Source: an uncultured delta proteobacterium (GTDB taxonomy: Bacteria > Desulfobacterota > Syntrophobacteria > Syntrophobacterales > Syntrophobacteraceae). Taken from it: DNA of 64,000 bases. Below are positions 4,347 to 59,800 of this stretch, piece by piece. Each line of letters opens with the position of its first letter. Within the stretch, counting starts at the first letter, position 1. The stretch lies in NCBI GenBank assembly GCA_963808625.1, contig CAWEHK010000033.1, positions 1 to 64,000 of the forward strand. Direction: 5' to 3'. The translations under genes and the position numbers were made by a program. The notes under the pieces were generated by a model. That model saw only the letters and a program-made list of their open reading frames with translations, had not been told where the DNA came from and made no database searches.

Positions 4347-4940
4347 TCATAGCTCATTCGCATACACACTTTTGATCTCTTCCGGCTGGATGCAGAGGTA
4401 TTCAAGCGTCTGACGCTGCGTCGAGTGGTTGAAACAGACCATCAACTCCGGCAAACCGGTCCCGAATACCACCCGCTGGATATAGCCGAAGGTTTTTCTC
4501 AAAGTATGAGCCCCGAAATTGCCCTTGAGGTTGATCGCGGCGCACCAGCTTTTGACCAACCGATTCACCGATGGGACGGTCAGACGTCCTCTCTGACCGA
4601 GGAATAGGTAATCGTCATCCTGGTAATCCCTGGAGGCGATCAGATTGCGGATGGCATCGACACAGGCCTTGTTCAGCGTGACCCTTCTGAGCTTCCCGGT
4701 CTTCTGCTCCTTCAGCTCAATCGACTCCAGGGGTTTCAGATTCCGGACCTGAGCGACCGTGATCTTGAGGAGGTCGACCGCCCTAAGGTTCGTGTTGATT
4801 CCAAGGGTGAAAAGAGCCAGGTCCCTTTGCTTCTTGGCGAGAAGCGTTTTGATCGCCTTGATGTCTTTCATCGTCTTGACCGGCTCGACCTTGATCGTCG
4901 ATCCCTTCACGGGATGGTTGCCATTGTTGCCTTTTGTCAT
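4347..4940 (-). CDS. Small tyrosine recombinase/integrase (catalytic domain only, ~197 aa)
   Basis: RDLALFTLGINTNLRAVDLL (catalytic R), EQKTGK (K), GAHTLRKTFGY (HxxR), FNHST...TLEYL (H, Y); RBS ggagg upstream. Confidence 0.9.
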   Translation of the reverse strand: MTKGNNGNHPVKGSTIKVEPVKTMKDIKAIKTLLAKKQRDLALFTLGINTNLRAVDLLKITVAQVRNLKPLESIELKEQKTGKLRRVTLNKACVDAIRNLIASRDYQDDDYLFLGQRGRLTVPSVNRLVKSWCAAINLKGNFGAHTLRKTFGYIQRVVFGTGLPELMVCFNHSTQRQTLEYLCIQPEEIKSVYANEL

Positions 4941-17007: not shown

Positions 17008-18167
17008 TTGGGCACGCTTCCAGGAGGAAAGAGGATTAAACTGTTGCTCATCCTGGCTTGCGCCAGTACTGTCGCTGGTGCTGTTGTCTGCCACCCCGGA
17101 CTGCTGCTGCGCGGAATCCGGACCACACGAAGGTTACCTAATCGGGATCTATGCCACGGGTTTACCATTTATCGAGAAAACGCCAAATGGAAGCTATGTC
17201 GGTGCAGAGGTTGAATTATGGGATGAAATCGCGCGGAGGGTAGGCTTCTCTTATCATTTTCGGGAGATGCACAGCCTTGCGGAGACACTCGAAGCACTGA
17301 CCAGAGATGAGCTGGATTTTGCTCTGGCCACTACGACGGTCACCAGCAAGCGTTCCAAGTCGATGGTGTTTTCACACCCATATTTTGTGTCCGGGCAGGC
17401 CATTCTGGTCAATGCAAAGGAGACAACCACCATAAGGGTTCTGCTCGAAGCCATATGCTCCCCTATTATAATTCAGGCATTTCTGGCCTTGATACTGCTG
17501 CTCATCGTTTATGGGCATGTACTCTGGTTCGCTGAGCGCGGGAAAAACCCGCTGTTAGACAGCCGTTACTTTCCCGGCGTTTTCGAGGCTATGTGGTGTG
17601 CTTTTGCCATCAAAAGCACTATCGGCTTCGGTGATGTGGTGCCGCATAATTGGACGGCGAGGATCCTGGCGGTGCCGATCTGGCTCTCTGGAATAGTCCT
17701 CGCTTCAGTGATCAGCGCCCAGTTGATTTCCGCCTTCGTTGCCGAGAGAATCAAGCCAGAGTCCACGATTTCCGGCTATCTTGATCTAGTGGATAAAAAG
17801 GTGGCAGTGCTTGAAGGATCGACCGGCATGATTGCTGTTGTGGATATTGGAGTCAAAGACGATAGTCCAGGTCACATCCACTGAGGAAGGGTATCAAAGG
17901 CTTCTTAATCACGAGGTGGATGCGTTCGTTTTTGATCATCCCAGTCTTGCGTATGAAACCGACAAATTGAGAGACAAGGGACAGGAGGTAATGATAGTAG
18001 GCGAGCCTTTCACCCAGGAGTTCTACGCGATACCCATGAGCACTCAGCTTGCCGCTCGTGAACCAACCCTTATGGGGAGAATAGACTCCGCCATTCTTGC
18101 AATGCATGACGAAAAGCACCTCGATCGTTTGCGACAGAAATGGATCTCGGTTTTGAACGTCCGCTAA
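17008..18167 (+). CDS. GluR0-like ligand-gated K+ channel (split substrate-binding domain flanking M1-P-M2), frameshifted
   Basis: SBP_bac_3 motifs (GAEVELWDEIA, TVTSKRS, FSHPY), TM helices, pore STIGFGDVVP, second SBP half in ORF 17832-18167; start is approximate. Confidence 0.8.
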
Positions 18168-35997: not shown

Positions 35998-36162
35998 AGA
36001 TTCAGGAGCTCTGGTTAACATAAATCAGCCTTGGCTTCGTCTGGTTGAAGAATAGCGCTAATCGGATTTTTCTTTTGTGTTTTTCAGAGGCAAGTCGTAA
36101 ACAACCAGGGATTCGGATGGTTGTTCCATGGCAAGGTCCCGTTCATTAATGGAGGATGGTCT

Positions 36163-47874: not shown

Positions 47875-48980
47875 GCGCCGGAGAGGCTTCGGGCGATTTG
47901 CACGGCTCCTATCTGGTGCGAGCCCTTAAGGCCCGTGCTCCCGGCATCCAGATCACGTGTATGGGAGGACCTCTTCTCCAAAACGCAGGGGCTGAGGTCC
48001 TGGTGGACCATCGGCGGCTGTCGGTGGTGGGCGTCTCTGAGGTTGCAGGCCACCTCAAAGTGCTCTATGGAGCGTGGCGAACCATCACCACTCATCTTCG
48101 CAGAAACCTTCCTGATAGGGTTATCCTTATAGACTTTCCGGACTTTAATTTCCTCCTTGCCCGGGCCGCCAAGCGCCTCGGAATCAGAGTGTTTTACTAT
48201 ATCAGCCCGCAGGTGTGGGCGTGGAGGAGCGGCAGGGTGCGGACCATCAGACGGCTCGTTGATCGGATGGCAGTGATTTTACCCTTCGAGACCGAATTCT
48301 ATGCTCAATTCAACATGAAAGTGGACTTTGTGGGGCACCCCCTCCTGGATGTTCTGCCGGCTCCACCGCTTCCTGAGCAGGCAAGAGCACGACACCGGTG
48401 GCCAGGTTCAGGACCGCTCATTGGACTTCTGCCGGGCAGTCGCCGGAGCGAAATTCGATCGCTCCTTCCCATTTTTCTGGATGCGGCTGAGATCATCAAA
48501 GATCGTTTGCCTGACGCTTCCTTTATCATTCCTGTTGCCTCTTCTCTTCATCCCTCTTTGTTCGAGGCTGACGTATCGGAGCACGGACTCCCGGTGCGCC
48601 TGGCGACCGGCGACACCTACGGCGTCATGCGCGCCTGTGACCTTCTGCTGACGGTCTCCGGTACGGCAACCTTGGAAGCCGCCATCCTGGGCTCTCCGAT
48701 GATCATTGTTAACAGAGTCTCCAATCTGAGTTATCATCTGGGTCGACACCTGATCCGGGTGAGCTTCATCGGCCTTCCCAATTTGATCGCCGGCCGGCAG
48801 ATTGTGCCCGAATTTATTCAAAGTGATGCCCGACCGGAGCTTATTGCGGCGTCGGCACTGAGCCTGCTGGAGCATCCGGAGCGGCTAAAAGAGCAGCGGC
48901 AAGAACTCGGGTTGATCAGAAACAAGTTGGGAGAGGCCGGGGTGGCGGATCGGGTCGCTGAGCTTGCGCTCCAAAATTAA
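47835..48980 (+). CDS. lpxB: Lipid A disaccharide synthase
   Basis: AGEASGDLHG, IDFPDFN, SPQVWAWR, LLPGSR, SGTATLE. Confidence 0.96.
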   Translation: MAGLRRRVIKVFLSAGEASGDLHGSYLVRALKARAPGIQITCMGGPLLQNAGAEVLVDHRRLSVVGVSEVAGHLKVLYGAWRTITTHLRRNLPDRVILIDFPDFNFLLARAAKRLGIRVFYYISPQVWAWRSGRVRTIRRLVDRMAVILPFETEFYAQFNMKVDFVGHPLLDVLPAPPLPEQARARHRWPGSGPLIGLLPGSRRSEIRSLLPIFLDAAEIIKDRLPDASFIIPVASSLHPSLFEADVSEHGLPVRLATGDTYGVMRACDLLLTVSGTATLEAAILGSPMIIVNRVSNLSYHLGRHLIRVSFIGLPNLIAGRQIVPEFIQSDARPELIAASALSLLEHPERLKEQRQELGLIRNKLGEAGVADRVAELALQN

Positions 48981-49006
48981 GTGTTCTGATGAAGGAGAGG
49001 ACTCCT

Positions 49007-49570
49007 ATGAACGCCTATGCCGATTTTTTGGTGCGAGAAAATTGCATCATGCTGCTTGTGGATATTCAAAAAGTCATGCTCGATCCTTGTGTGGATCATA
49101 ATCTGGTAACCAAAAACGCTGCCGCGCTACTCGATATCGCCGGAATTCTTGAAGTCCCGATCATGTTTTCGGTTCACAACACAGAGAAGTTGGGTGGTTT
49201 TTTGCCGGAACTGTTGCAGAGAGTCTCTCTGCCGGCAATTTACCCCAAGCTGGAGTTCAGCTGTCTGGAAAATGAGGGTATCTTCCGCGCGCTGCAGCAG
49301 TCCGGGCGCCGAACCCTGCTGCTGGTCGGCTTGGAAACGCATGTGTGTATCTTTCATACCGGCGCCCATGCCTTGCGCTTGGGCTATCGCGTACATGTTG
49401 CCGCCGACGCTGTGACTTCCAGGAGCAAGATCAACCGGGAGGTCGGTTTGCGGCGTCTGGAAAGGGCTGGAGCGGTGATCAGTTCCACGGAAATGATCAT
49501 TTTCGAGCTCCTCAATCGGGCGGGAACGCCGGAATTTCGTGCCGCTTTGCCTTTGCTCAAAACGCTCTAA
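49007..49570 (+). CDS. Isochorismatase-family cysteine hydrolase
   Basis: LLVDIQ, KLEFSC, GLETHVC, STEMIIFEL. Confidence 0.9.
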   Translation: MNAYADFLVRENCIMLLVDIQKVMLDPCVDHNLVTKNAAALLDIAGILEVPIMFSVHNTEKLGGFLPELLQRVSLPAIYPKLEFSCLENEGIFRALQQSGRRTLLLVGLETHVCIFHTGAHALRLGYRVHVAADAVTSRSKINREVGLRRLERAGAVISSTEMIIFELLNRAGTPEFRAALPLLKTL

Positions 49571-49581
49571 CGAGGGGCAGA

Positions 49582-50433
49582 TCAGGGTTTTGCCAGGCAT
49601 TGGCGGACACTCGTCATCGGAAATCGCCTGCCCGGGCAATCCGTGGCTGCCCCCGGTGCATCACGGTGGCCGATGATGTGGGTAACTGGAATATGGTAAT
49701 AATCACATAGGGTTTTCAGGAGATAGTTCAGCGACTGAAGCTGACTGGCCGTGGGAGGTTCGGAATTGAAGTTCCCGACAAGGCCGATTCCGATTCCCTT
49801 CTCGTTCATTCCCGCCACATTGCAGTGCGCGCCGCCCTGTTGTTTGATCCAGCGGGGCGCCACTTCAATTTGACCGTCACCTTTCCCCAAGGTCCCATTA
49901 TCGATCAGGAAATGGTACCCCAACCCATTCCAGAAACCTCGGTCCTGATGCGAACGGTTGATGAGATAAGCCTTGCCGACATCGGTAGCGGTGTGGTGAA
50001 TGACGACATATTTCCACCGCGAGCTGGGGTAAAGCGCGATAACATTGCGAAGAGCTTTGGCATTTGGAATGACGAGCTTTTGGCCCTGGTGTATGGGATT
50101 GCCGGGTTTTAGAGAATTCGCCGTATAGATCGCCTCCGGGGAGACATCGTACATTCTGGAGATTCTCCAAACGGTTTCGAGCGGAGCCACTTCATGGATG
50201 ATGGTTTGGGTGGTCCCCGGGTCAACAAAGCATTTTTCTACAACCTTTGGGCCCACGTCAGAGGACTGAGAGGGTTTGGTGGGAGGCGGGAGGGAGCCGG
50301 TGGAAGAGGCGGACCCTCCGGGCGGCAATGTGGCAACCTTGTGGGTGCAGCCGGCTGGAACCAACATAATGAAGAAAACCAGCACGAAACTGACGGTCCC
50401 CCGGGAACAGAAGGAAAAGAAAGTCTTCATCAT
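49582..50433 (-). CDS. LysM + N-acetylmuramoyl-L-alanine amidase (Amidase_2) lipoprotein
   Basis: PAGC lipobox, HEVAPLETVWRISRMY (LysM), VIHHTA, GYHFLI, GAHC, IGHRD..TDCPG. Confidence 0.9.
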   Translation of the reverse strand: MMKTFFSFCSRGTVSFVLVFFIMLVPAGCTHKVATLPPGGSASSTGSLPPPTKPSQSSDVGPKVVEKCFVDPGTTQTIIHEVAPLETVWRISRMYDVSPEAIYTANSLKPGNPIHQGQKLVIPNAKALRNVIALYPSSRWKYVVIHHTATDVGKAYLINRSHQDRGFWNGLGYHFLIDNGTLGKGDGQIEVAPRWIKQQGGAHCNVAGMNEKGIGIGLVGNFNSEPPTASQLQSLNYLLKTLCDYYHIPVTHIIGHRDAPGAATDCPGRRFPMTSVRQCLAKP

Positions 50434-50555
50434 AATGGTCTCTCTAGCGGGCCATTGCCGTGAAGCATCTTAGGATAAAGCCAAGGTGCACCTACGTTCT
50501 TTCATCTTAAAGATGTTTTGCGTGTTTTCAAGTGTCAATTTCGATGGAAATCTTC

Positions 50556-50585
50556 TTGACAATCCCTTTTCTTTTTAGTTAGTCT
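50556..50585 (+). promoter_or_regulatory. Candidate sigma70 promoter of the aroF-tyrA leader
   Basis: TTGACA-N18-TAGTCT. Confidence 0.5.
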
Positions 50586-50615
50586 TCCGACCGAAACTGA
50601 AACCGAGGAGAGGTG

Positions 50616-50681
50616 ATGTTTACCAAGTATTACCGCTATTATTATTGCAGCGAAATTCCGGGGAGCGCTGGGGATATGTAA
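50616..50681 (+). CDS. Tyr-rich attenuator leader peptide MFTKYYRYYYCSEIPGSAGDM
   Basis: RBS gaggagagg; 5 Tyr codons within 6; precedes DAHP synthase and prephenate dehydrogenase. Confidence 0.85.
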   Translation: MFTKYYRYYYCSEIPGSAGDM

Positions 50682-50713
50682 GGCTGCCGATTTATTTTAA
50701 GTGAGTGCATCGA

Positions 50714-50755
50714 AGCCGTGGGTGTCCCGGAGTGATCCCGCGGCTCTTTTGTTTT
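50714..50755 (+). terminator. Attenuator terminator 1
   Basis: agccgtggg...cccgcggct followed by cttttgtttt. Confidence 0.8.
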
Positions 50756-50776
50756 CAGATTCAATGAAAGAATTCG

Positions 50777-50810
50777 GGCCGTGGGAATCAAATTCCCAAT
50801 GGCCTTTTTT
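50777..50810 (+). terminator. Second leader terminator
   Basis: ggccgtgggaat-caa-attcccaatggcc followed by tttttt. Confidence 0.75.
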
Positions 50811-50873
50811 CTTGGCACAGAGCGTCCTGTCGAAGAGATGCCCTGGCCCTTCTTTCAAGGAGGTAAAACGTTC

Positions 50874-51888
50874 ATGATTATTGTATTGAAACCCGGACAC
50901 GAGGATGAGGATCTGCATCGGCTGGTAAGGCGCCTTGAAGACCTTGGCTTCCGAGCCCATATCTCAAAAGGCGAGCATCGGACCATCGTAGGGGCCATCG
51001 GGGATGAGCGCTCTTTACGAGAGGTTCCCCTGGAATCAATGCCGGGGGTGGAATCGGTATTGCCCATCCTTAAGCCTTACAAGCTGGTCAGCAGGGAATT
51101 CAAACCAGAAGACACCGTCATCAAAGTAGACGGACAGGAAATCGGAGGCCAAAAGATCCAGATTTTTGCAGGACCTTGTGCGGTTGAAAGCTCGGGAGGT
51201 TCTGGAGGAGATTGCTGAAGCCCTGCTCCCTTCGGGGGTTCATTTTCTCCGCGGCGGGGCGTTCAAACCTCGAACTTCGCCATACGCTTTTCAAGGCTGG
51301 GGTGAAAAGGGCCTTAAGTTTCTGGATGCGGTTCGGGAACGAACCGGAATGCTGGTTGTGACGGAGCTCATGGACCCCAGAGACACCGTCCTGGTGTGCA
51401 GATACGCGGATATCATCCAGATCGGCACCAGAAATATGCAGAATTTCAGGCTGTTGACGGAAGTGGGAAATATTGAGAAGCCGGTTATCCTGAAGCGTGG
51501 TATGAGCGCAACCATTAAGGAATTTTTGATGTCGGCCGAATACATTTTGGCACAGGGGAACGAGAGAGTCATCCTCTGTGAGCGGGGAATTCGGACCTTT
51601 GAAACCGAAACTCGCAACACTCTTGACATCAGCGCCGTTCCTTTGCTGAAACAGTTGACGCATCTGCCGGTGATCGTTGATCCAAGCCATGCAGTCGGTC
51701 GGGCGGATCTCGTTCCGGCAGTTTCCAAAGCGGCCATTGCAGCCGGAGCCGACGGCTTGCTTATAGAAGTGCACGTCAGGCCGGAGGAAGCATTCAGCGA
51801 CGGCCCTCAGTCGTTGCGGCCTCGGGCTTTTGACAAGATGATCGAGGAATGCCGCCTTGTGGCGACGGCGGTGGGGCGGACCCTTTAG
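50874..51888 (+). CDS. aroF: DAHP synthase type I-beta with N-terminal regulatory domain (frameshift at ~51190)
   Basis: [56 protein letters not shown]. Confidence 0.95.
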
Positions 51889-52001
51889 CCGACTGTTGAA
51901 AAACCGTCTCACAGCGATTATTGGATAACGAAGCCGATAGTGAGCCGGTTATTCGGGTAGACTTTTTCTCCAATCGTTCGCGGTTTTTAGAAGGACCCCT
52001 C

Positions 52002-52930
52002 ATGGATGCCCAACAGCACCCCCCTCATTTTCGGCCTGACCAGGAAGAAGGCGAACTGCTGCGCTGGGGACGCGGAAGAACGATCGGGATTATCGGTGGT
52101 AATGGCCAGATGGGCCAATTGTTCGGTCGTTTCTTTGAGACCCAAGGATATCAGGTGTTCGTCTCCGACCGTGACCCGGGTCATGACAACAAAGAGATCA
52201 TGCGAATATCCGATATGGTCCTTTTTGCGGTGCCGCTTCACGAGACGGTGAACATCATCCGGGAGCTTGTTGTGCATGCTCGCCCCGAGCAGCTGCTTAT
52301 GGATTTGAGCAGCCTGAAGGTCGGTCCTGTGCAGGCAATGTTGCGCTCTCCTTCATCCGTTGTAGGACTGCATCCCATGTTTGGGGGAAACATTTCGTCC
52401 TTTGCCGGGCAAACCATCGTAGCCTGCCCGGTGCGCATTGATCCCTTTCGAATGGCGCTGTCTGCGGCAGACTGTTTGAAAATCAGGGGATCCGGGTTAA
52501 GGAATGCAGCCCGGAAAAACACGATTACATGATGAGTATTATCCAGGTGCTGTTTCATGTGACCACCATGCTGACCGGTCAGGGTCTTGCGGGACCTGGA
52601 AGTAGATGTTGGCCGAAACCATGGAATTTACAAGCCCCAGCTACCGGCTGGAGATGAATCTCCTCGGCCGAATGTTTGCTCAAAACCCTGCCCTCTACTC
52701 TGCGATTACCCAAATGAATCCCGTTCACCCGGGAGGTTCTCGACCATCTTGAAGCGGGTCTGAAGGTTACAAGGAATGGTATGGCGCTGCCGATTTCCCG
52801 GCATTTGTGGATGACTTCAAAAGGAGTGCCGAACATCTGGGGGATTTTTGTGAATCGGCATTCGAGGAGAGCTCTGCACTCCTGGACTTTGCCGTCAATT
52901 TGGCCCGATCCAGAAAAGAGCGACCGAGCA
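52002..52930 (+). CDS. tyrA: Prephenate dehydrogenase (several frameshifts; 3' end approximate)
   Basis: IGIIGGNGQMG, DLSSLK, GLHPMFG, HDYMMSIIQVL.H, QNPALY. Confidence 0.85.
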
Positions 52931-53548
52931 ACCGCCGGAAAAGGGCAGGGGGGTTAAGATTTTCTCACTCTTTTCAGCGACAACAAATCTTTCCAGACAA
53001 ACTCTTAGGCAGTCCTCACAATTGGAGGTCTGAGAACCCTTTTGGCAATATCGGGCAAAGGCGCTGAACCAGTCCAAGCCCGTACGGGGACACATCTTGA
53101 TGAATTCGAGAAAACGAACCAGACGATCGACGGCCATGGGGTCAATCGCGTGTTCAACACGGCAGGCATTGGCCTCAGCCTCTGGAGGATCCAGTTGCAG
53201 TGCCGAGATGAAGAATTCTTTGAGGGTTTCGTGGCGGCGGATGATATCCTGAGCAACCGTGCGCCCGGCGGAAGTCAAAGTGATGTAGCTATACGGACTG
53301 TAATTGATCAGCCCGCGACCCGCCAAGGCCTTGAGCGCCCCCGTTACCGAAGCGCGTTGAACACTCATCTGGTCGGCAATGTCTTTGGCGCGTGCCACGC
53401 GGTTAGACCGCTCCAGATGGTAGATGACCTCAAGATAATCTTCCAAGCTGGCAGAAAGCCCTTCCGGGAGATCCTGGATCATAGCTGATGCCTTTTCGTA
53501 GTTTTTGATCACCGCTTGCACCTTATCCGCTTCCTCACGGCACGTCAA
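52895..53548 (-). CDS. DtxR/MntR-family metal-dependent regulator with Cys-rich C-terminus
   Basis: SLEDYLEVIYHL, ARAKDIA, SVTGALK, RRHETL..FF, ACRVEHAI; start may be 53482. Confidence 0.92.
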   Translation of the reverse strand: MTCREEADKVQAVIKNYEKASAMIQDLPEGLSASLEDYLEVIYHLERSNRVARAKDIADQMSVQRASVTGALKALAGRGLINYSPYSYITLTSAGRTVAQDIIRRHETLKEFFISALQLDPPEAEANACRVEHAIDPMAVDRLVRFLEFIKMCPRTGLDWFSAFARYCQKGSQTSNCEDCLRVCLERFVVAEKSEKILTPLPFSGGCSVALFWIGPN

Positions 53549-53850: not shown

Positions 53851-56800
53851 TCAATCATTGTCAGCGATATTGACAACCGCACTCCGTGCCGATGGGACGG
53901 CAGCGTACGCTGTGGTGTCCACAAGATTGAGCTCAACGGTCTCGATCCCCTCAGCGATCGCGTCGTCAATTGGTGTAAGGGTGACATCGATGGCGCTTGC
54001 TCCGGCAGGAATGGTTGTCGTCAGCGGCAGATTCGCGTAGTCCGTCCCATTCGTCGCCGTGCCCGTGAAAGTGCATTTTATATCTAATGCGGACCCGGTG
54101 CTTCCGGTACGACTGATCGTAAATTTACCTGCCTTTGGTCCCGCTTCCGAGGCGTTGGGGTCTGTGGCAACAACGCTCACTTTCGGCATGTTGTCCCCTA
54201 GAATGGTGACCGTTCCTTTGTTTGGTGTACCGATCTGGTAGGCCGTCTCGTTGGCTGCCAGGGAGAGAATGACTGTCTGATTAGGCTCCGTTTGGTTGTC
54301 ATCGAGTGGGGTTATGGTGATGTTGATTGATGACTTACCCTTTGGAATGGAGACGGTCTTGGAGAGTTTCTGGTAATCAACACCATTAACAGCGGTACCG
54401 GCAACCGTGTATTTAACTGCCAGGGCGTTCGCTGTGGTCCCTGTTCGGGAAACCTTCAACTTTCCGGCATTGTCCGGCTTTGCAGCGATGGCATCGAACG
54501 CGGATAAGGTGACCGTTGGCAGATCATTTTCCCGTATGGTCATGGTGGCATTGTCGGGGGAGCCGCAACGGTACTTCGCATTGTCCAGGAGAGTGACCAT
54601 TACGGTCTTGTTCCCTTCATATTCCGCATTGTCAATGGGTTTTACTTGGATGTTTGCCGAGGCTGAACCGGCGGGAATCGTAAGAGAGCCTGAGAGGTGC
54701 GTATAATCAACGCCGTCCGCTGCTGTTGAGCCGGTTGTTGCATATTTTACCGTGAGGGCTGAGGTCAAAGAACCGATGCGGGTGACGGTGAATCTTCCGG
54801 TGAAAGTGCCTGCCTCGGTGATGCTTTTGTCCTTGGCGGTGACTGTCACAGAGGGTTTTTCCGCATTCACGATCGTAACCTTGGCACTGGTCGGCGAAGT
54901 GAGGGTGTAAGAGGCATTAGCGGTGAGGGTGAGGTCAACCGTTTCATTGCCGTCATTTTCCTGGTTCTTGATGGGGATGATGTCAATATTTGCCGAGGAT
55001 TGTCCCGCCGGAATGGTGCCAGTGGCCAGAATGGTCTGATAATCGACGCCGTTGGCAGCTTTCCCTCCAATGCTGTAATTAACGACCAACGAAGAAGTGG
55101 TGCTGCCGGTTCGAGAGATTTTGAACTGTCCATTATCGACAACGATCGTGGACGCTTTTGGGTCGGCCGCGGTGATGCTCACCTTGGGAAGATCGTTGTC
55201 GGCAATAGTGACGGTGGCGGTCGGTGGTGGCGAACCAATCGTATAGGCTGCATTGGTCGAGAGGGTCACCACAACCGTTTCCGGACCCTCAAATTCGGTA
55301 TCGTCGATAGGCGTTACCTTGATAACCGCTGAGGAGGCTCCTGTCGGAATCGTCACCGAACCGGTGAGGGATTGATAGTCGGTTCCCTTTGTTGCCGTAC
55401 CGCCAGTGGTGTACTTGACGGCGAGCGCCGCCTTGGTGATGCCGGTTCGGGTAACGGTGAATTGTCCGGTGTCCGTGCCGGGTTCGGAAGCATTGGGATC
55501 GGTCGCAGCGAGCGTAATCGCAGGGAGGTCGTTATCAACGATAGTGACCGATGCGCTCTTGGAGGAGCCCAAGGCATAGCCGGCGCCGGAAGTAAGGGTA
55601 AGGGTGACGGTTTCGTCGCCTTCGTAGTCCGTATCTTCTATCGCCGTTACCAATATGGTTGCGTAGGCCTGATCCGCAGGAATGGTCACGGATGTGGATA
55701 GACTGTTGTAATCAACTCCATTTGTTGCCGTCCCGCCGACGGTATAGTTTACCACCGATTCGGAATGGTTGTTGCCTATCCGCGAAACCCTGAACTGCCC
55801 TTCGGCTCCCCCCGCTTCACTCGTGTTGCGGATGAGATAAATGGATACTTCAGGGTTTTCATCATCCACGATGATGGCGGTTGCCTGATTTGGTGAACCA
55901 ATATAATAAGAGGCGCTGTCGGAAAGAGAGAGGATGACCGTCTTATCAAGATCTACCGTAGTATTATTCAATGCGGTCACGATGATATCGACGGAAGACT
56001 GACTAGCCGCCATGGTCACAATTTCGGGAAGGGTGCTGTAATTGCCGCCCGGCACAGCGGTACCGCTCATTTTGTAGTTCACTATTAGAGGCGCACTGAC
56101 GTCTCCGGTGCGAGATATCGTGAATATAGCCGTGTCATTTCCGGGTTCGGAGGCAACAGCATCGGTGGCGACAACCGTCACCGTCGGCCATTCGTCGTCG
56201 AGAATATTGATCGTGTCAACGGCAGGCGTTCCGATTGTGTATCCCGGGTTGGCCGCAAGGCTGACGATAATCGTCTCGGTCCCTTCGTAGAGTGAATCAT
56301 CGATACTGGCTACCTGAATGACCGTTGTCGTTGGAGTCAGCCGGTATGGTCACCGTACCGGAGAGGGCATTGTAGTCGACACCGGGGTCTGCCGTCCCGG
56401 CAGTGCCATAGTGGACGGTCAGGGGCAAAGCGGTATTGCCCGTTCGACTCACCGTCAAGACCCCGGGGTCTGTTCCGCTTTCAAAGCTGTTAGCGACCGT
56501 AGTGGAGATAGTCACCGTCGGGAGGTCGTTGTCATGAATGACGACCATGCCGTCCTTTGGGTCACCGACCGTGTAGAAATCATCGTTTTTCGAAAGGGTG
56601 ACGATTACTATTCTGTCGCCCTGGTATCCCGTATCGTCTTTGGGAATGACGAGCAAGTCCTGGGAAGCGCTTCCTCCCGGAATAGTCAGGGTGCCGTTGA
56701 GCTTCTGAAAATCCGTACCATTCTTTGCCGTGCCACTGACTTGGTAGTTCACCTGCAGCAGACTGATCTGGGTCGAATTGCGAGTGATGGTAAATCTCCC

Positions 56801-59800
56801 ATTCCTCGGCCCCGTCTCAGATGCATTGTCATCCACCGTAACAATAGTCACGGTGGGGAGATCGTTTTCATTAATGTAGAGGGTGGCACTGAAGGGAGAA
56901 CCGATCTTGTACCAGCCATTGCTGGCGAGGGTAAGTGAAACGAATTCGCGATCTTCAGGGATGGTGTCATCGATTGGAACAATCTGGATCGTCGCAGACA
57001 AAGCGCCGTCAGGAAGGACCACAGACGAGGGGATATAGCTGTAATCGGCACCATTCGTGGCTCGTACCGCCGATGGTATAGAAGACGGTCAGCGCCCCCG
57101 TGGTGTTTCCTGAACGCGAGACCTTGAATTCACCCGGGTCAGAGCCCTCCTCTGCGGCACGATTGTCATTCAAGGTAAGGGTCACCGTGGGCAGATCGTC
57201 ATCGGCAATCGTGACGGTGGCGTTATCAGAGGAGGCGGGGTTATAGAGTTCGTTGGCCAGGAGGGCAAGCTTGACCGTCTCCGGCCCTTCCAACAGGGTG
57301 TCGTTGATGGGTGCTAAGGTGATCGTTGCGGAAGGCGAATTCGCCGGTATCACAAGTGAGCCGGGTAGTGCAGCATAATCAGTCCCATTCGTTGCGGTGC
57401 CGCCTATGCCATAATAGACGGTCAGCGGACTCGTTGTGATCCCGGTCCGGGAAACCGTAAAGAGGCCGGAAACCGCCGGTTCGGCTGCATTGGGGTTCGT
57501 GGCGGCGATGGCAACGATGGGGCGATCATCATCGGCAATGCTCACGGTCGCGCTGCTTTGGGCGGCGATTTTATAGTTTTGAGCGGGCGAAATGGTCAAA
57601 ACTACCTCTTCGATACCTTCATAGTCGGTATCTTGCAAAGGAGCAACCAACACCGTGGCGGACGCAGCATATGCTGGAATCGTTACCGGGCTGGTGAGCA
57701 GGGCATAGTCGGTGCCGTTGGCTGCACTTCCGCTGACGCTGTAAGCCACAACCAACGGATTGGTTGTGCTCCCCGTGCGATACACCGTGAACTGACCTGT
57801 ATCCGGCCCCTTTTCCGCAGCATTGGCATCGGTGGCGACAAGCGAGACAATTGGCCGTACGTCATCGGCAATGGTAATAGTGGCCTTGGGAGGGGCTCCC
57901 ACATTATAGGAAGCGCTGCTTGAAATGGTGACGATAACGGTCTCTTCGCCCTCGATAACATCATCGCTGATTGGTGTTAGGGTGATCGTTTGCGAAGGCG
58001 AACCCGCTGGAATTACAAGCGAGCCGGAAAGCGCAGCATAGTCGTTTACAGCAGTTGCCGTACCGCTGGTGGTGTAGTTGACAGTCAAAGAGGAGGTGGT
58101 AATGCCGGTTCGCGTAACTGTGAGCAGACCTGGATTCGGTCCCATTTCCGAAGCATTAGGGGTGGTCGCAGCGATGCTCACCGTTGGCAGGTCATTGTCA
58201 TGGATGGTCACCATCGCATTGTTGGGCGATCCCAGCTGATATGAAGAATTGCTTGCCAGTGCGAGTACGACGGTCTCGTCGCCCTCATATTCCCCATCGT
58301 CTATCGGCCTCACTGTGACATTGGCCGATGATGAACCCGCCGGAATGGTCACCGAACCGGGCACCGTATTAGGCACCGTCGTGTAGTCGCCACCATTCAA
58401 GGCCGCACCGGCGAGGGTATAGTAGACCACCAGCGAAGAACTGGTGATGCCCGTTCGGGTAATCATAAATTGCCCGGGATCAGTGTCGGTCTCGGAAGCG
58501 TTCGGATCCGTTGCGGTGACTGTTACTGTCGGCAGATCATTGTCAACAAGGGTAATTCTCGCACTATTGGGTGAAGCGACATTGTAGAGGGCGCTTCCGG
58601 AAAGGGTGAGGATGATCGTCTCGTTTCCCTCGTATTCGGTGTCATCAACCGAGGTCACCAGAACAGTGGCTGAAGGGGCGCCGGCCGGAATTGTCGCACT
58701 GAGGGGGAGGGGAGCATAGTCAGACCCGCTCGCCGCCGTTCCACTGACAGTCCAGTTAACCGCCAGGGCAGAGCTGGTAATTCCGGTGCGAGAGATCTTG
58801 AATTCGCCCTTCAGCGGTCCAGATTCAAGGAAAGAGGAAGTGGTCGCCGCGACGGTCACTGACGGCAGGTCGTTATCGACAATGGTCAGGGTGGCGCTGG
58901 CGGGAGAGCCAACTTTATAAGTAGAATTCAGCAATATGGTCAACACGACCGTCTCAGGACCTTCGAATTCCTCATCATCGACCGGTGTCACGGTGATGAT
59001 CGAGGAAGATGAGCCCTGGGCAATAGTGACGGTTCCGGAGAGTTCTTTGTAGTCGGTGCCGTTAGTAGCCGTGCCGCTCACAACATACTTGACCGTCAGG
59101 GGGTTCGAGGTGTTCTCGGTTCGGTAAATGGTAAAACGCCCGGACTCTTGGTCCGCTTCATAAGCGGAGGGATCAGTCGCCGCAGTCGTCACTATCGGCA
59201 AATCGTTGTCGACGATGGTGATGGTGGCCGTAACGTTGGGACCGAGATTGTAGGAAGCATTCGGGGACAGGGTGAGGGTGACGGTTTCGTCTCCTTCATA
59301 GCCCGAGTCGTCAATGGGGGTTACAAAAATACTGGCGGTAGCAGCACCGACTGAAAAGGTTACGGTGCCGAAAAGCTGTCCGTAATCGCTGCCTGACGTA
59401 GCGGTGCCGCCAGCGCTGTAGCTGACGGTCAGAGGCGCGCTGGTTATGCCGGTGCGGGAGACGCTAAATTGAGCCGATCCTGGGCCCTGTTCCGGAACCG
59501 TGGCAACGGTGGTGGCGAGGGTTACCGTGGGCAGATCATTGTCGGCAATTGTGACTGTGCCGCTTTTGGCCAAACCGAGGACGTAGGATGGAGCGGAAGA
59601 AAGCGTGACCGTAACCGTCTCATCCCCTTCGTAATCCAAATCATCGATGGGTTTTACGGAGATTGCGGTTGAAGAGGCAAAGGCTGGAATGGTCACCAAG
59701 CCGTCGATCGCCTGAAAATCAACACCATCGGCGGCGGTGCCGCTGAGGATATAGTTTACGGTTAGAGGCGAAGAATTTATTCCGGTGCGGGAGACAATAA

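Follow-up and report, generated by a model that had tools for sequence, protein, structure and literature searches.

In the trpL attenuator, a leader ORF with cognate codons precedes an antiterminator that competes with a terminator. The his operon leader (hisL) of Escherichia coli and Salmonella is described, in the passages of PMC10989985 that deal with it, as stem-loops AB, CD, and EF alternating with BC and DE, and the attenuators listed in those passages sense Trp, Phe, Thr, Leu, and His. For Desulfobacterium autotrophicum, the relevant section of PMC3082878 names a possible pheL. According to the corresponding portions of Song et al. 2005 (PMC1173090), enteric aroF-tyrA is under the control of TyrR, and what is known of tyrA regulation is scant and does not extend beyond the TyrR regulon of some gamma-proteobacteria. 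Table 7 of that paper lists attenuators predicted before tyrA operons, with attenuation proposed for aroF-tyrA in Vibrio and Thermus and for an aro operon of Desulfovibrio vulgaris; these predictions are structure-only, and the term "leader peptide" is absent from the portions of text concerned. Also, Table 3 of PMC2659441 lists Shewanella aroF as an "attenuator sensing tyr-tRNA," the table citing a 1980 E. coli paper. Finally, the uORFC-13-1 motif of Acholeplasma, a predicted uORF and terminator upstream of aroF, is read as Phe-sensing in the paragraph that Brewer et al. 2021 (PMC8632094) give to it. Given the Shewanella and tyrA predictions, Tyr attenuation at aroF was anticipated as an idea, and we found no matching element described: a full-text literature search returned no Tyr leader peptide or twin-terminator attenuator for this group, and older attenuation surveys and supplements, which lie outside that search, may list Tyr leaders.

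The locus considered here lies in the window (the whole 64,000-nucleotide stretch of DNA that was analysed), with all of its features on the forward strand. We propose, with a probability of roughly 0.85, that a conserved Tyr-codon leader and two terminators before aroF-tyrA together make up a ribosome-sensed transcription attenuator in which an arm released from the first terminator captures the first arm of the second. Its classical part, a Tyr-specific attenuator, is predicted with high confidence; to the working of the relay between the terminators we would give somewhat better than even odds.

The element begins with a candidate sigma-70 promoter at 50556 to 50585 (TTGACA at 50556 to 50561, an 18-nt spacer, and a weak -10 box, TAGTCT, at 50580 to 50585), proposed from its sequence and from the conservation of TTGAC. 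A Shine-Dalgarno sequence, GAGGAG, at 50605 to 50610 precedes a 21-codon leader peptide ORF, MFTKYYRYYYCSEIPGSAGDM*, at 50616 to 50681, with five Tyr codons at 50628, 50631, 50637, 50640, and 50643 in a run spanning 50628 to 50645. The preliminary description of this DNA had located promoter, ribosome-binding site, ORF, and Tyr codons correctly. A generic promoter and terminator scan called neither the promoter nor either terminator, owing to the weakness of the -10 box and to stems that are long or bulged. The leader frame and length are identical in an independent genome (locus L002). Across the six frames of the window, this leader holds the sole run of five Tyr in six codons, and genome-wide at least four Tyr in seven codons occur in 4 of 6307 short ORFs with a Shine-Dalgarno sequence and ATG. 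All four stand before aromatic-biosynthesis operons: aroF-tyrA copies in three cases and, in the fourth, a pheA-aroD-aroE-aroA-like operon, whose gene names were read off translations. The rarity of the Tyr run is by itself modest (the same count gives 4 for His and 5 for Trp), and the weight rests on gene context.

Downstream of the terminators lie a further hairpin (50814 to 50849) and then, with its RBS GGAGGT, aroF, encoding DAHP synthase (50859 to 51888; start at 50874; NCBIfam PRK08673), which has a frameshift near 51190. It is followed by tyrA, encoding prephenate dehydrogenase, at 52002 to 52923, which is spread over three frames in this assembly. Since aroF, read in two frames here, occupies a single frame in 28 of 30 orthologous loci, the frameshifts in aroF and tyrA (50874 to 52923) are probably assembly indels. 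A Calx-beta repeat gene (53851 to 57022) is likewise present as two ORFs, and its split may have the same cause. The closest named relatives of this aroF belong to Syntrophobacteraceae and Syntrophobacterales. The block lpxA-lpxB-amidase-aroF-tyrA-mntR occurs in three syntenic copies in the source genome (G000), mostly at 74 to 82% nucleotide identity, located at 36000 to 79000 and, inverted, at 146700 to 200900 of contig C33, and at 4900 to 36600 of contig C37; two copies are therefore on one contig. The bin, and probably contig C33 itself, seems to be a mix of sequences from related species, and the three Tyr leaders of this genome are best read as orthologues.

Conservation was assessed by searching 41 genomes and taking the best 30 aroF-orthologue loci (the present one and 29 from relatives, falling into three families, f1 to f3), a count that leaves out 11 of the 41 genomes, for which the retrieved loci included no close aroF-tyrA orthologue. 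A Tyr-run leader ORF is present in 30/30 loci (L004 being cut by a contig end), as are terminator 1 and a downstream tyrA, and TTGAC stands 70 to 122 nt 5' of the first Tyr codon in 29 of them. Related loci are not independent, which applies to these counts and to the swap comparisons below. The suggestion that a Tyr-specific leader is unusual in this lineage does not hold: none of the orthologous loci examined lacks the element, which is conserved throughout an order of anaerobes, and Trp and Phe leaders show the two-hairpin design again. For the interval 48000 to 53000 of the window, at E values up to 5, Rfam gave no family match apart from a chance miRNA match, and at gathering score none of 6 loci matched, the His_leader, Phe_leader, and Trp_leader models included. 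Among 80 more distant aroF loci (5 of them too short), a loose filter found a Tyr-run ORF in 10, of which 6 are Syntrophobacterales-like, 3 come with a terminator and belong to other phyla, and 1 is doubtful. The Trp and Phe calls of the same filter resembled noise and were discarded. Tyr-run leaders with terminators ahead of a DAHP synthase gene were seen in L077, L110, and L125 (Anaerolineae and Gemmatimonas records).

Terminator 1 (T1) extends from 50714 to 50755 and comprises segment C (50714 to 50728), segment D (50736 to 50746), and an interrupted U-tract (50747 to 50755). Its hairpin (50714 to 50745) has a predicted stability of -17.7 kcal/mol and the tail CTTTTGTTTT. Over the 30 loci, all 240 of 240 cells of its 8-bp stem are paired, and 4 pairs show two-sided change; T-rich tails are seen as well. 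The strand competing for C is segment B (50666 to 50677, extendable to 50658), which forms the 5' side of the antiterminator at the end of the leader ORF. Its core, GGGATAT at 50671 to 50677, pairs with GTGTCCC at 50722 to 50728, inside segment C, and this B:C core is 92.8% paired in family f1, while an equivalent helix of different sequence is 98.8% paired in f2. Covariation of B:C within families is not clearly better than in shuffles (25/500 for f1, 91/500 for f2). When B and C are swapped between families (29 loci, L004 left out), the duplex is weakened in 120/120 comparisons of f1 with f2 and in 45/48 of f2 with f3, against 50/120 and 17/48 for a control segment; the f1-f3 swap (73/90 versus 64/90 for the control) is not discriminating. 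On sequence grounds, the conserved antiterminator is thus the 3' end of the leader paired into T1, and not the helix first proposed.

The preliminary description had taken two other helices as the classical 1:2 and antiterminator pairings. The complementary stretches exist, GCAGC at 50647 with GCTGC at 50683 and GGCTGCCGAT at 50682 with ATCGAAGCC at 50709, but pairing in the 1:2 helix and its inner stem reaches 57%, like shuffles, and the proposed antiterminator, at 66% pairing across 16 family members, makes up just the variable inner portion of a longer helix. These values rule both out as a conserved core. The variable extension (50682 to 50717) does appear in the minimum free energy fold of this copy. 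Segment A (50647 to 50659) is a candidate anti-antiterminator strand, with its GCAGC facing 50683 to 50687 and its ATTCC facing the GGGAT of segment B, and its helix belongs to a fold of -14.4 kcal/mol in this copy. A conserved A:B helix was sought in f1 and none was found, with pairing at 57% and the register not kept; in f2, A:B is 90% paired, without covariation.

A modelled ribosome walk along this copy gave a probability of T1 of 0.00 on every Tyr codon and of at least 0.96 from codon 15 to 17 on. The modelled switch appears in 19/30 loci, and T1 is formed in 30/30 with a ribosome positioned on the stop codon; equilibrium folding gave no switch in 11/30 loci, among them all 6 of family f3. 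Conservation and the modelled switch together support the earlier reading of the locus, in which ribosomes stalling at Tyr codons govern the attenuation of aroF-tyrA through two terminators. Folded at equilibrium without a ribosome, this copy adopts the antiterminator, and so its basal state is poorly predicted. A GG(A/G)G..ATG-stop arrangement lying on segment B (window 50663 to 50681; also L003 to L006 and the C37 copy) is kept in all 10 copies of the genus (stop TAA, TGA, or TAG), including the 5 whose leader ends just before it. This start-stop mini-ORF may permit re-initiation, by which the antiterminator would be covered, or may be what is left of a longer leader.

Terminator 2 (T2) extends from 50776 to 50813 and consists of segment E (50776 to 50786), segment F (50792 to 50805), and a U-tract (50805 to 50813), with a hairpin (50776 to 50805) of -18.4 kcal/mol and the tail TTTTTTCTT. 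Both terminators stand where the preliminary description put them, and the GCCGTGGG arm recurs at 50715 and 50778. That recurrence had been taken to suggest a duplication, from which a different account of T2 follows: the Tyr attenuator would be the same, and T2 would be an independent, uncontrolled, leaky terminator that lowers just the ceiling of expression. We regard this as possible and rather unlikely. In its favor, E is identical to C at 160/180 positions, and the second hairpin is found in 20/30 loci (19 with a T-rich tail) and is absent from 10/30. However, E differs from C exactly where D:E pairing improves, and it follows the 3' arm of T1 even where the 5' arm does not. E is complementary to D over 11 bp in this copy, and over 20 loci its 9-nt core forms 171 Watson-Crick and 6 GU pairs with D, with 3 mismatches of 180; with F, the same core forms 136 Watson-Crick and 20 GU pairs with 24 mismatches of 180, although the advantage of D is inflated because the E:F count is ungapped and F is bulged in this genus. 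In 17/20 loci, the stability of D:E equals or exceeds that of E:F. At the D1:E9 pair, four Watson-Crick types occur (TA 9, GC 7, AT 1, CG 1), whereas C9:D1 is paired in just 9/20, and a neutral duplicate of C would not be expected to track D through four pair types. In L007, L013, and L016, E stays the complement of D despite a degenerate second terminator.

Modelling indicates that the RNA left free behind a stalled ribosome folds into B:C and D:E, and behind a ribosome at the stop codon into T1 and T2. In the stalled state, the predicted probability of D:E is 0.78 to 0.99 for transcripts reaching as far as 50802, with F incomplete, and 0.10 at 50804. Once F is complete, T2 out-competes the relay in this copy (-63.2 versus -59.7 kcal/mol), which also speaks for an independent T2, and the barrier to escape is 6.9 kcal/mol. 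In only 5/22 copies does equilibrium folding keep T2 off during the stall and switch it on at the stop codon. The barrier into D:E amounts to 0.8 kcal/mol when starting from the ON state and to 10.5 kcal/mol when starting from C:D. With a ribosome positioned on the stop codon and F incomplete, D:E is also favored at equilibrium in this genus, and therefore C:D must be kinetically trapped; the barriers in that state are 10.5 kcal/mol to D:E versus 3.8 kcal/mol to E:F. Accordingly modelled, the relay is a solely kinetic effect, plausible and dependent on timing. It should also be considered that an uncontrolled T2 would cancel readthrough past T1.

The DAHP synthase paralogues of relatives bear on the same choice. 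The paralogue standing before a trpE-like gene (L141 to L160) carries a Trp run in 20/20 loci taken, the next gene being identified in 4, and two hairpins in 17/20. In 19/20 processed loci of a DAHP synthase-prephenate dehydratase(-ACT) fusion (L031 to L049 and L053), a Phe run is accompanied by two hairpins, L034 having been missed by the pattern. A T-rich tail follows the first hairpin in 5/19 Phe leaders and the second in 19/19. Since the first Phe hairpin mostly lacks such a tail, a relay would be needed there to link the leader with the real terminator, and this argues against an independent second hairpin. Modelled D:E switching in 16/19 Phe loci and 12/17 Trp loci points the same way, while equilibrium E:F switching was modelled in none of the Phe loci and in 2 Trp loci. 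As judged from sequence, the codon identity of each leader matches the branch enzyme behind its paralogue. In the source genome, a Trp leader, FWCWWW, with tandem hairpins precedes a DAHP synthase paralogue at about 130900 to 131050 of contig C21 (reverse strand), and a search of this genome, which is 85% complete, for the fusion paralogue found none. We give about an even chance to a broader picture, in which three DAHP synthase paralogues of Syntrophobacterales are under Tyr (aroF-tyrA), Phe (aroF-pheA fusion), and Trp (aroF-trpE) attenuators sharing this domino design, and in which tyrosine genuinely counts among the amino acids of attenuation in much of Desulfobacterota.

Additional leaders were seen elsewhere in the source genome. 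At 17772 to 17907 of contig C42 (reverse strand), a Tyr/Phe leader, MTNNSYFRYYYFCY..., with one terminator precedes the pheA-aroD-aroE-aroA-like operon; in locus L059 of the same genus, pheA directly follows another gene, unlike the C42 arrangement. At about 70105 to 70270 of contig C10 (forward strand), a YYYGYF leader with two hairpins, the first weak-tailed, precedes a gene for an ABC-transporter periplasmic binding protein, a candidate for aromatic amino acid transport regulated in the same way. At about 44240 to 44430 of contig C52 (reverse strand), a leader, MINRFYYLYRFCF..., is followed by two terminators. The gene behind it presumably encodes a phenylacetate-CoA ligase, which its N-terminus resembles. 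By inspection, D and E of the C52 tandem pair can still pair even though its C and E sequences differ, which again disfavors a T2 that arose as a simple, independent duplicate.

It might also be supposed that the leader senses aromatic amino acids generally, or that the peptide itself stalls the ribosome in the manner of tnaC, so that the charging of Tyr-tRNA alone is not what is read. Within the runs of the 30 loci, 153 of 209 codons are Tyr (TAT 104, TAC 49), and Phe (14), Trp (8), and Cys (8) codons also occur. Moreover, a covariance model built from the 30 loci matches in 47/151 genomes of the phylum, and the 26 outside loci inspected have ORFs rich in Tyr, Phe, and Trp, a few of them weak. 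The 12 downstream proteins identified there comprise 5 DAHP synthases, 3 ADH synthases, and one each of shikimate kinase, anthranilate synthase, an aminotransferase, and isopropylmalate synthase; mixed leaders before genes of the common pathway are thus found phylum-wide. Nevertheless, neither Phe nor Trp codons interrupt the run of this copy, Phe and Trp have separate leaders on their own paralogues, and the peptide is unconserved outside the run, with 3 to 19 codons following the last Tyr. We therefore consider general sensing or peptide stalling improbable. As for control by a TyrR/PhhR-type regulator, an RNA-binding protein, or a T-box, with the uORF incidental, TyrR-type helix-turn-helix matches do occur in 4/5 genomes searched, the source genome included, but the promoter region upstream offers no better match to a TyrR box than one with 4 mismatches of 12, T-box (RF00230) matches occur in 0/5 genomes, and were the leader untranslated, a Tyr run in 30/30 loci that uses both codons would be hard to account for, all of which makes such control very improbable.

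From the parts of the Tyr attenuator, their conservation, and their complementarity, a course of events can be proposed in which translation of the leader, stalling, termination, the response to tyrosine, and the relay are all predicted steps. When tyrosine is plentiful, the ribosome would pass codon 15 to 17 and cover segment B (50666 to 50677). With B covered, C:D would form as T1, and polymerases leaking past T1 would meet E:F, that is, T2. When charged Tyr-tRNA is scarce, the ribosome would wait at 50628 to 50645, leaving B free to pair with C. The D strand released in this way would pair with E as E emerges, so that T2 would be blocked and aroF-tyrA transcribed. If this is correct, a single ribosome stall disarms two serial terminators by way of a strand handed from the first to the second, and the domino design would make the OFF state tighter without lowering the ON state.

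Several implications follow. The Tyr leader would fill a gap in the regulation of tyrA for syntrophic and sulfate-reducing bacteria, and it adds unannotated small ORFs to their genomes. The twin-terminator relay would be a compact way of multiplying termination efficiency from one sensor and is a possible synthetic part. Finally, the Tyr, Phe, and Trp set would mean that entry into the pathway is controlled branch by branch at the RNA level.

Among described systems, uORFC-13-1 differs from the present element in its Phe reading, in its phylum, in being a prediction, and in that the paragraph on it describes no antiterminator or second terminator. The predicted tyrA and aroF attenuators share the proposal of attenuation for aroF-tyrA, and none of those in the tables concerned is for Syntrophobacterales or has twin terminators. 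The likeness to trpL and to pheL-pheA, the latter as it appears in the relevant section of PMC3082878, lies in a cognate-codon leader, an antiterminator competing with a terminator, and aromatic-biosynthesis genes downstream; here, in contrast, the codons are Tyr, the target is aroF-tyrA, and there is a second terminator. The his leader comes close as well: its short ORF holds a run of cognate codons, and among its six segments BC pairing releases D, which then pairs with E and blocks the last hairpin. The element at aroF-tyrA departs from it in the amino acid predicted to be sensed, in an AB register that is unconserved, in matching no Rfam family, and in a CD hairpin that is here a terminator with a U-tract, giving two stop points. 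The basic mechanism is textbook, and what would be new is the combination of Tyr specificity, six his-like segments, and two terminators.
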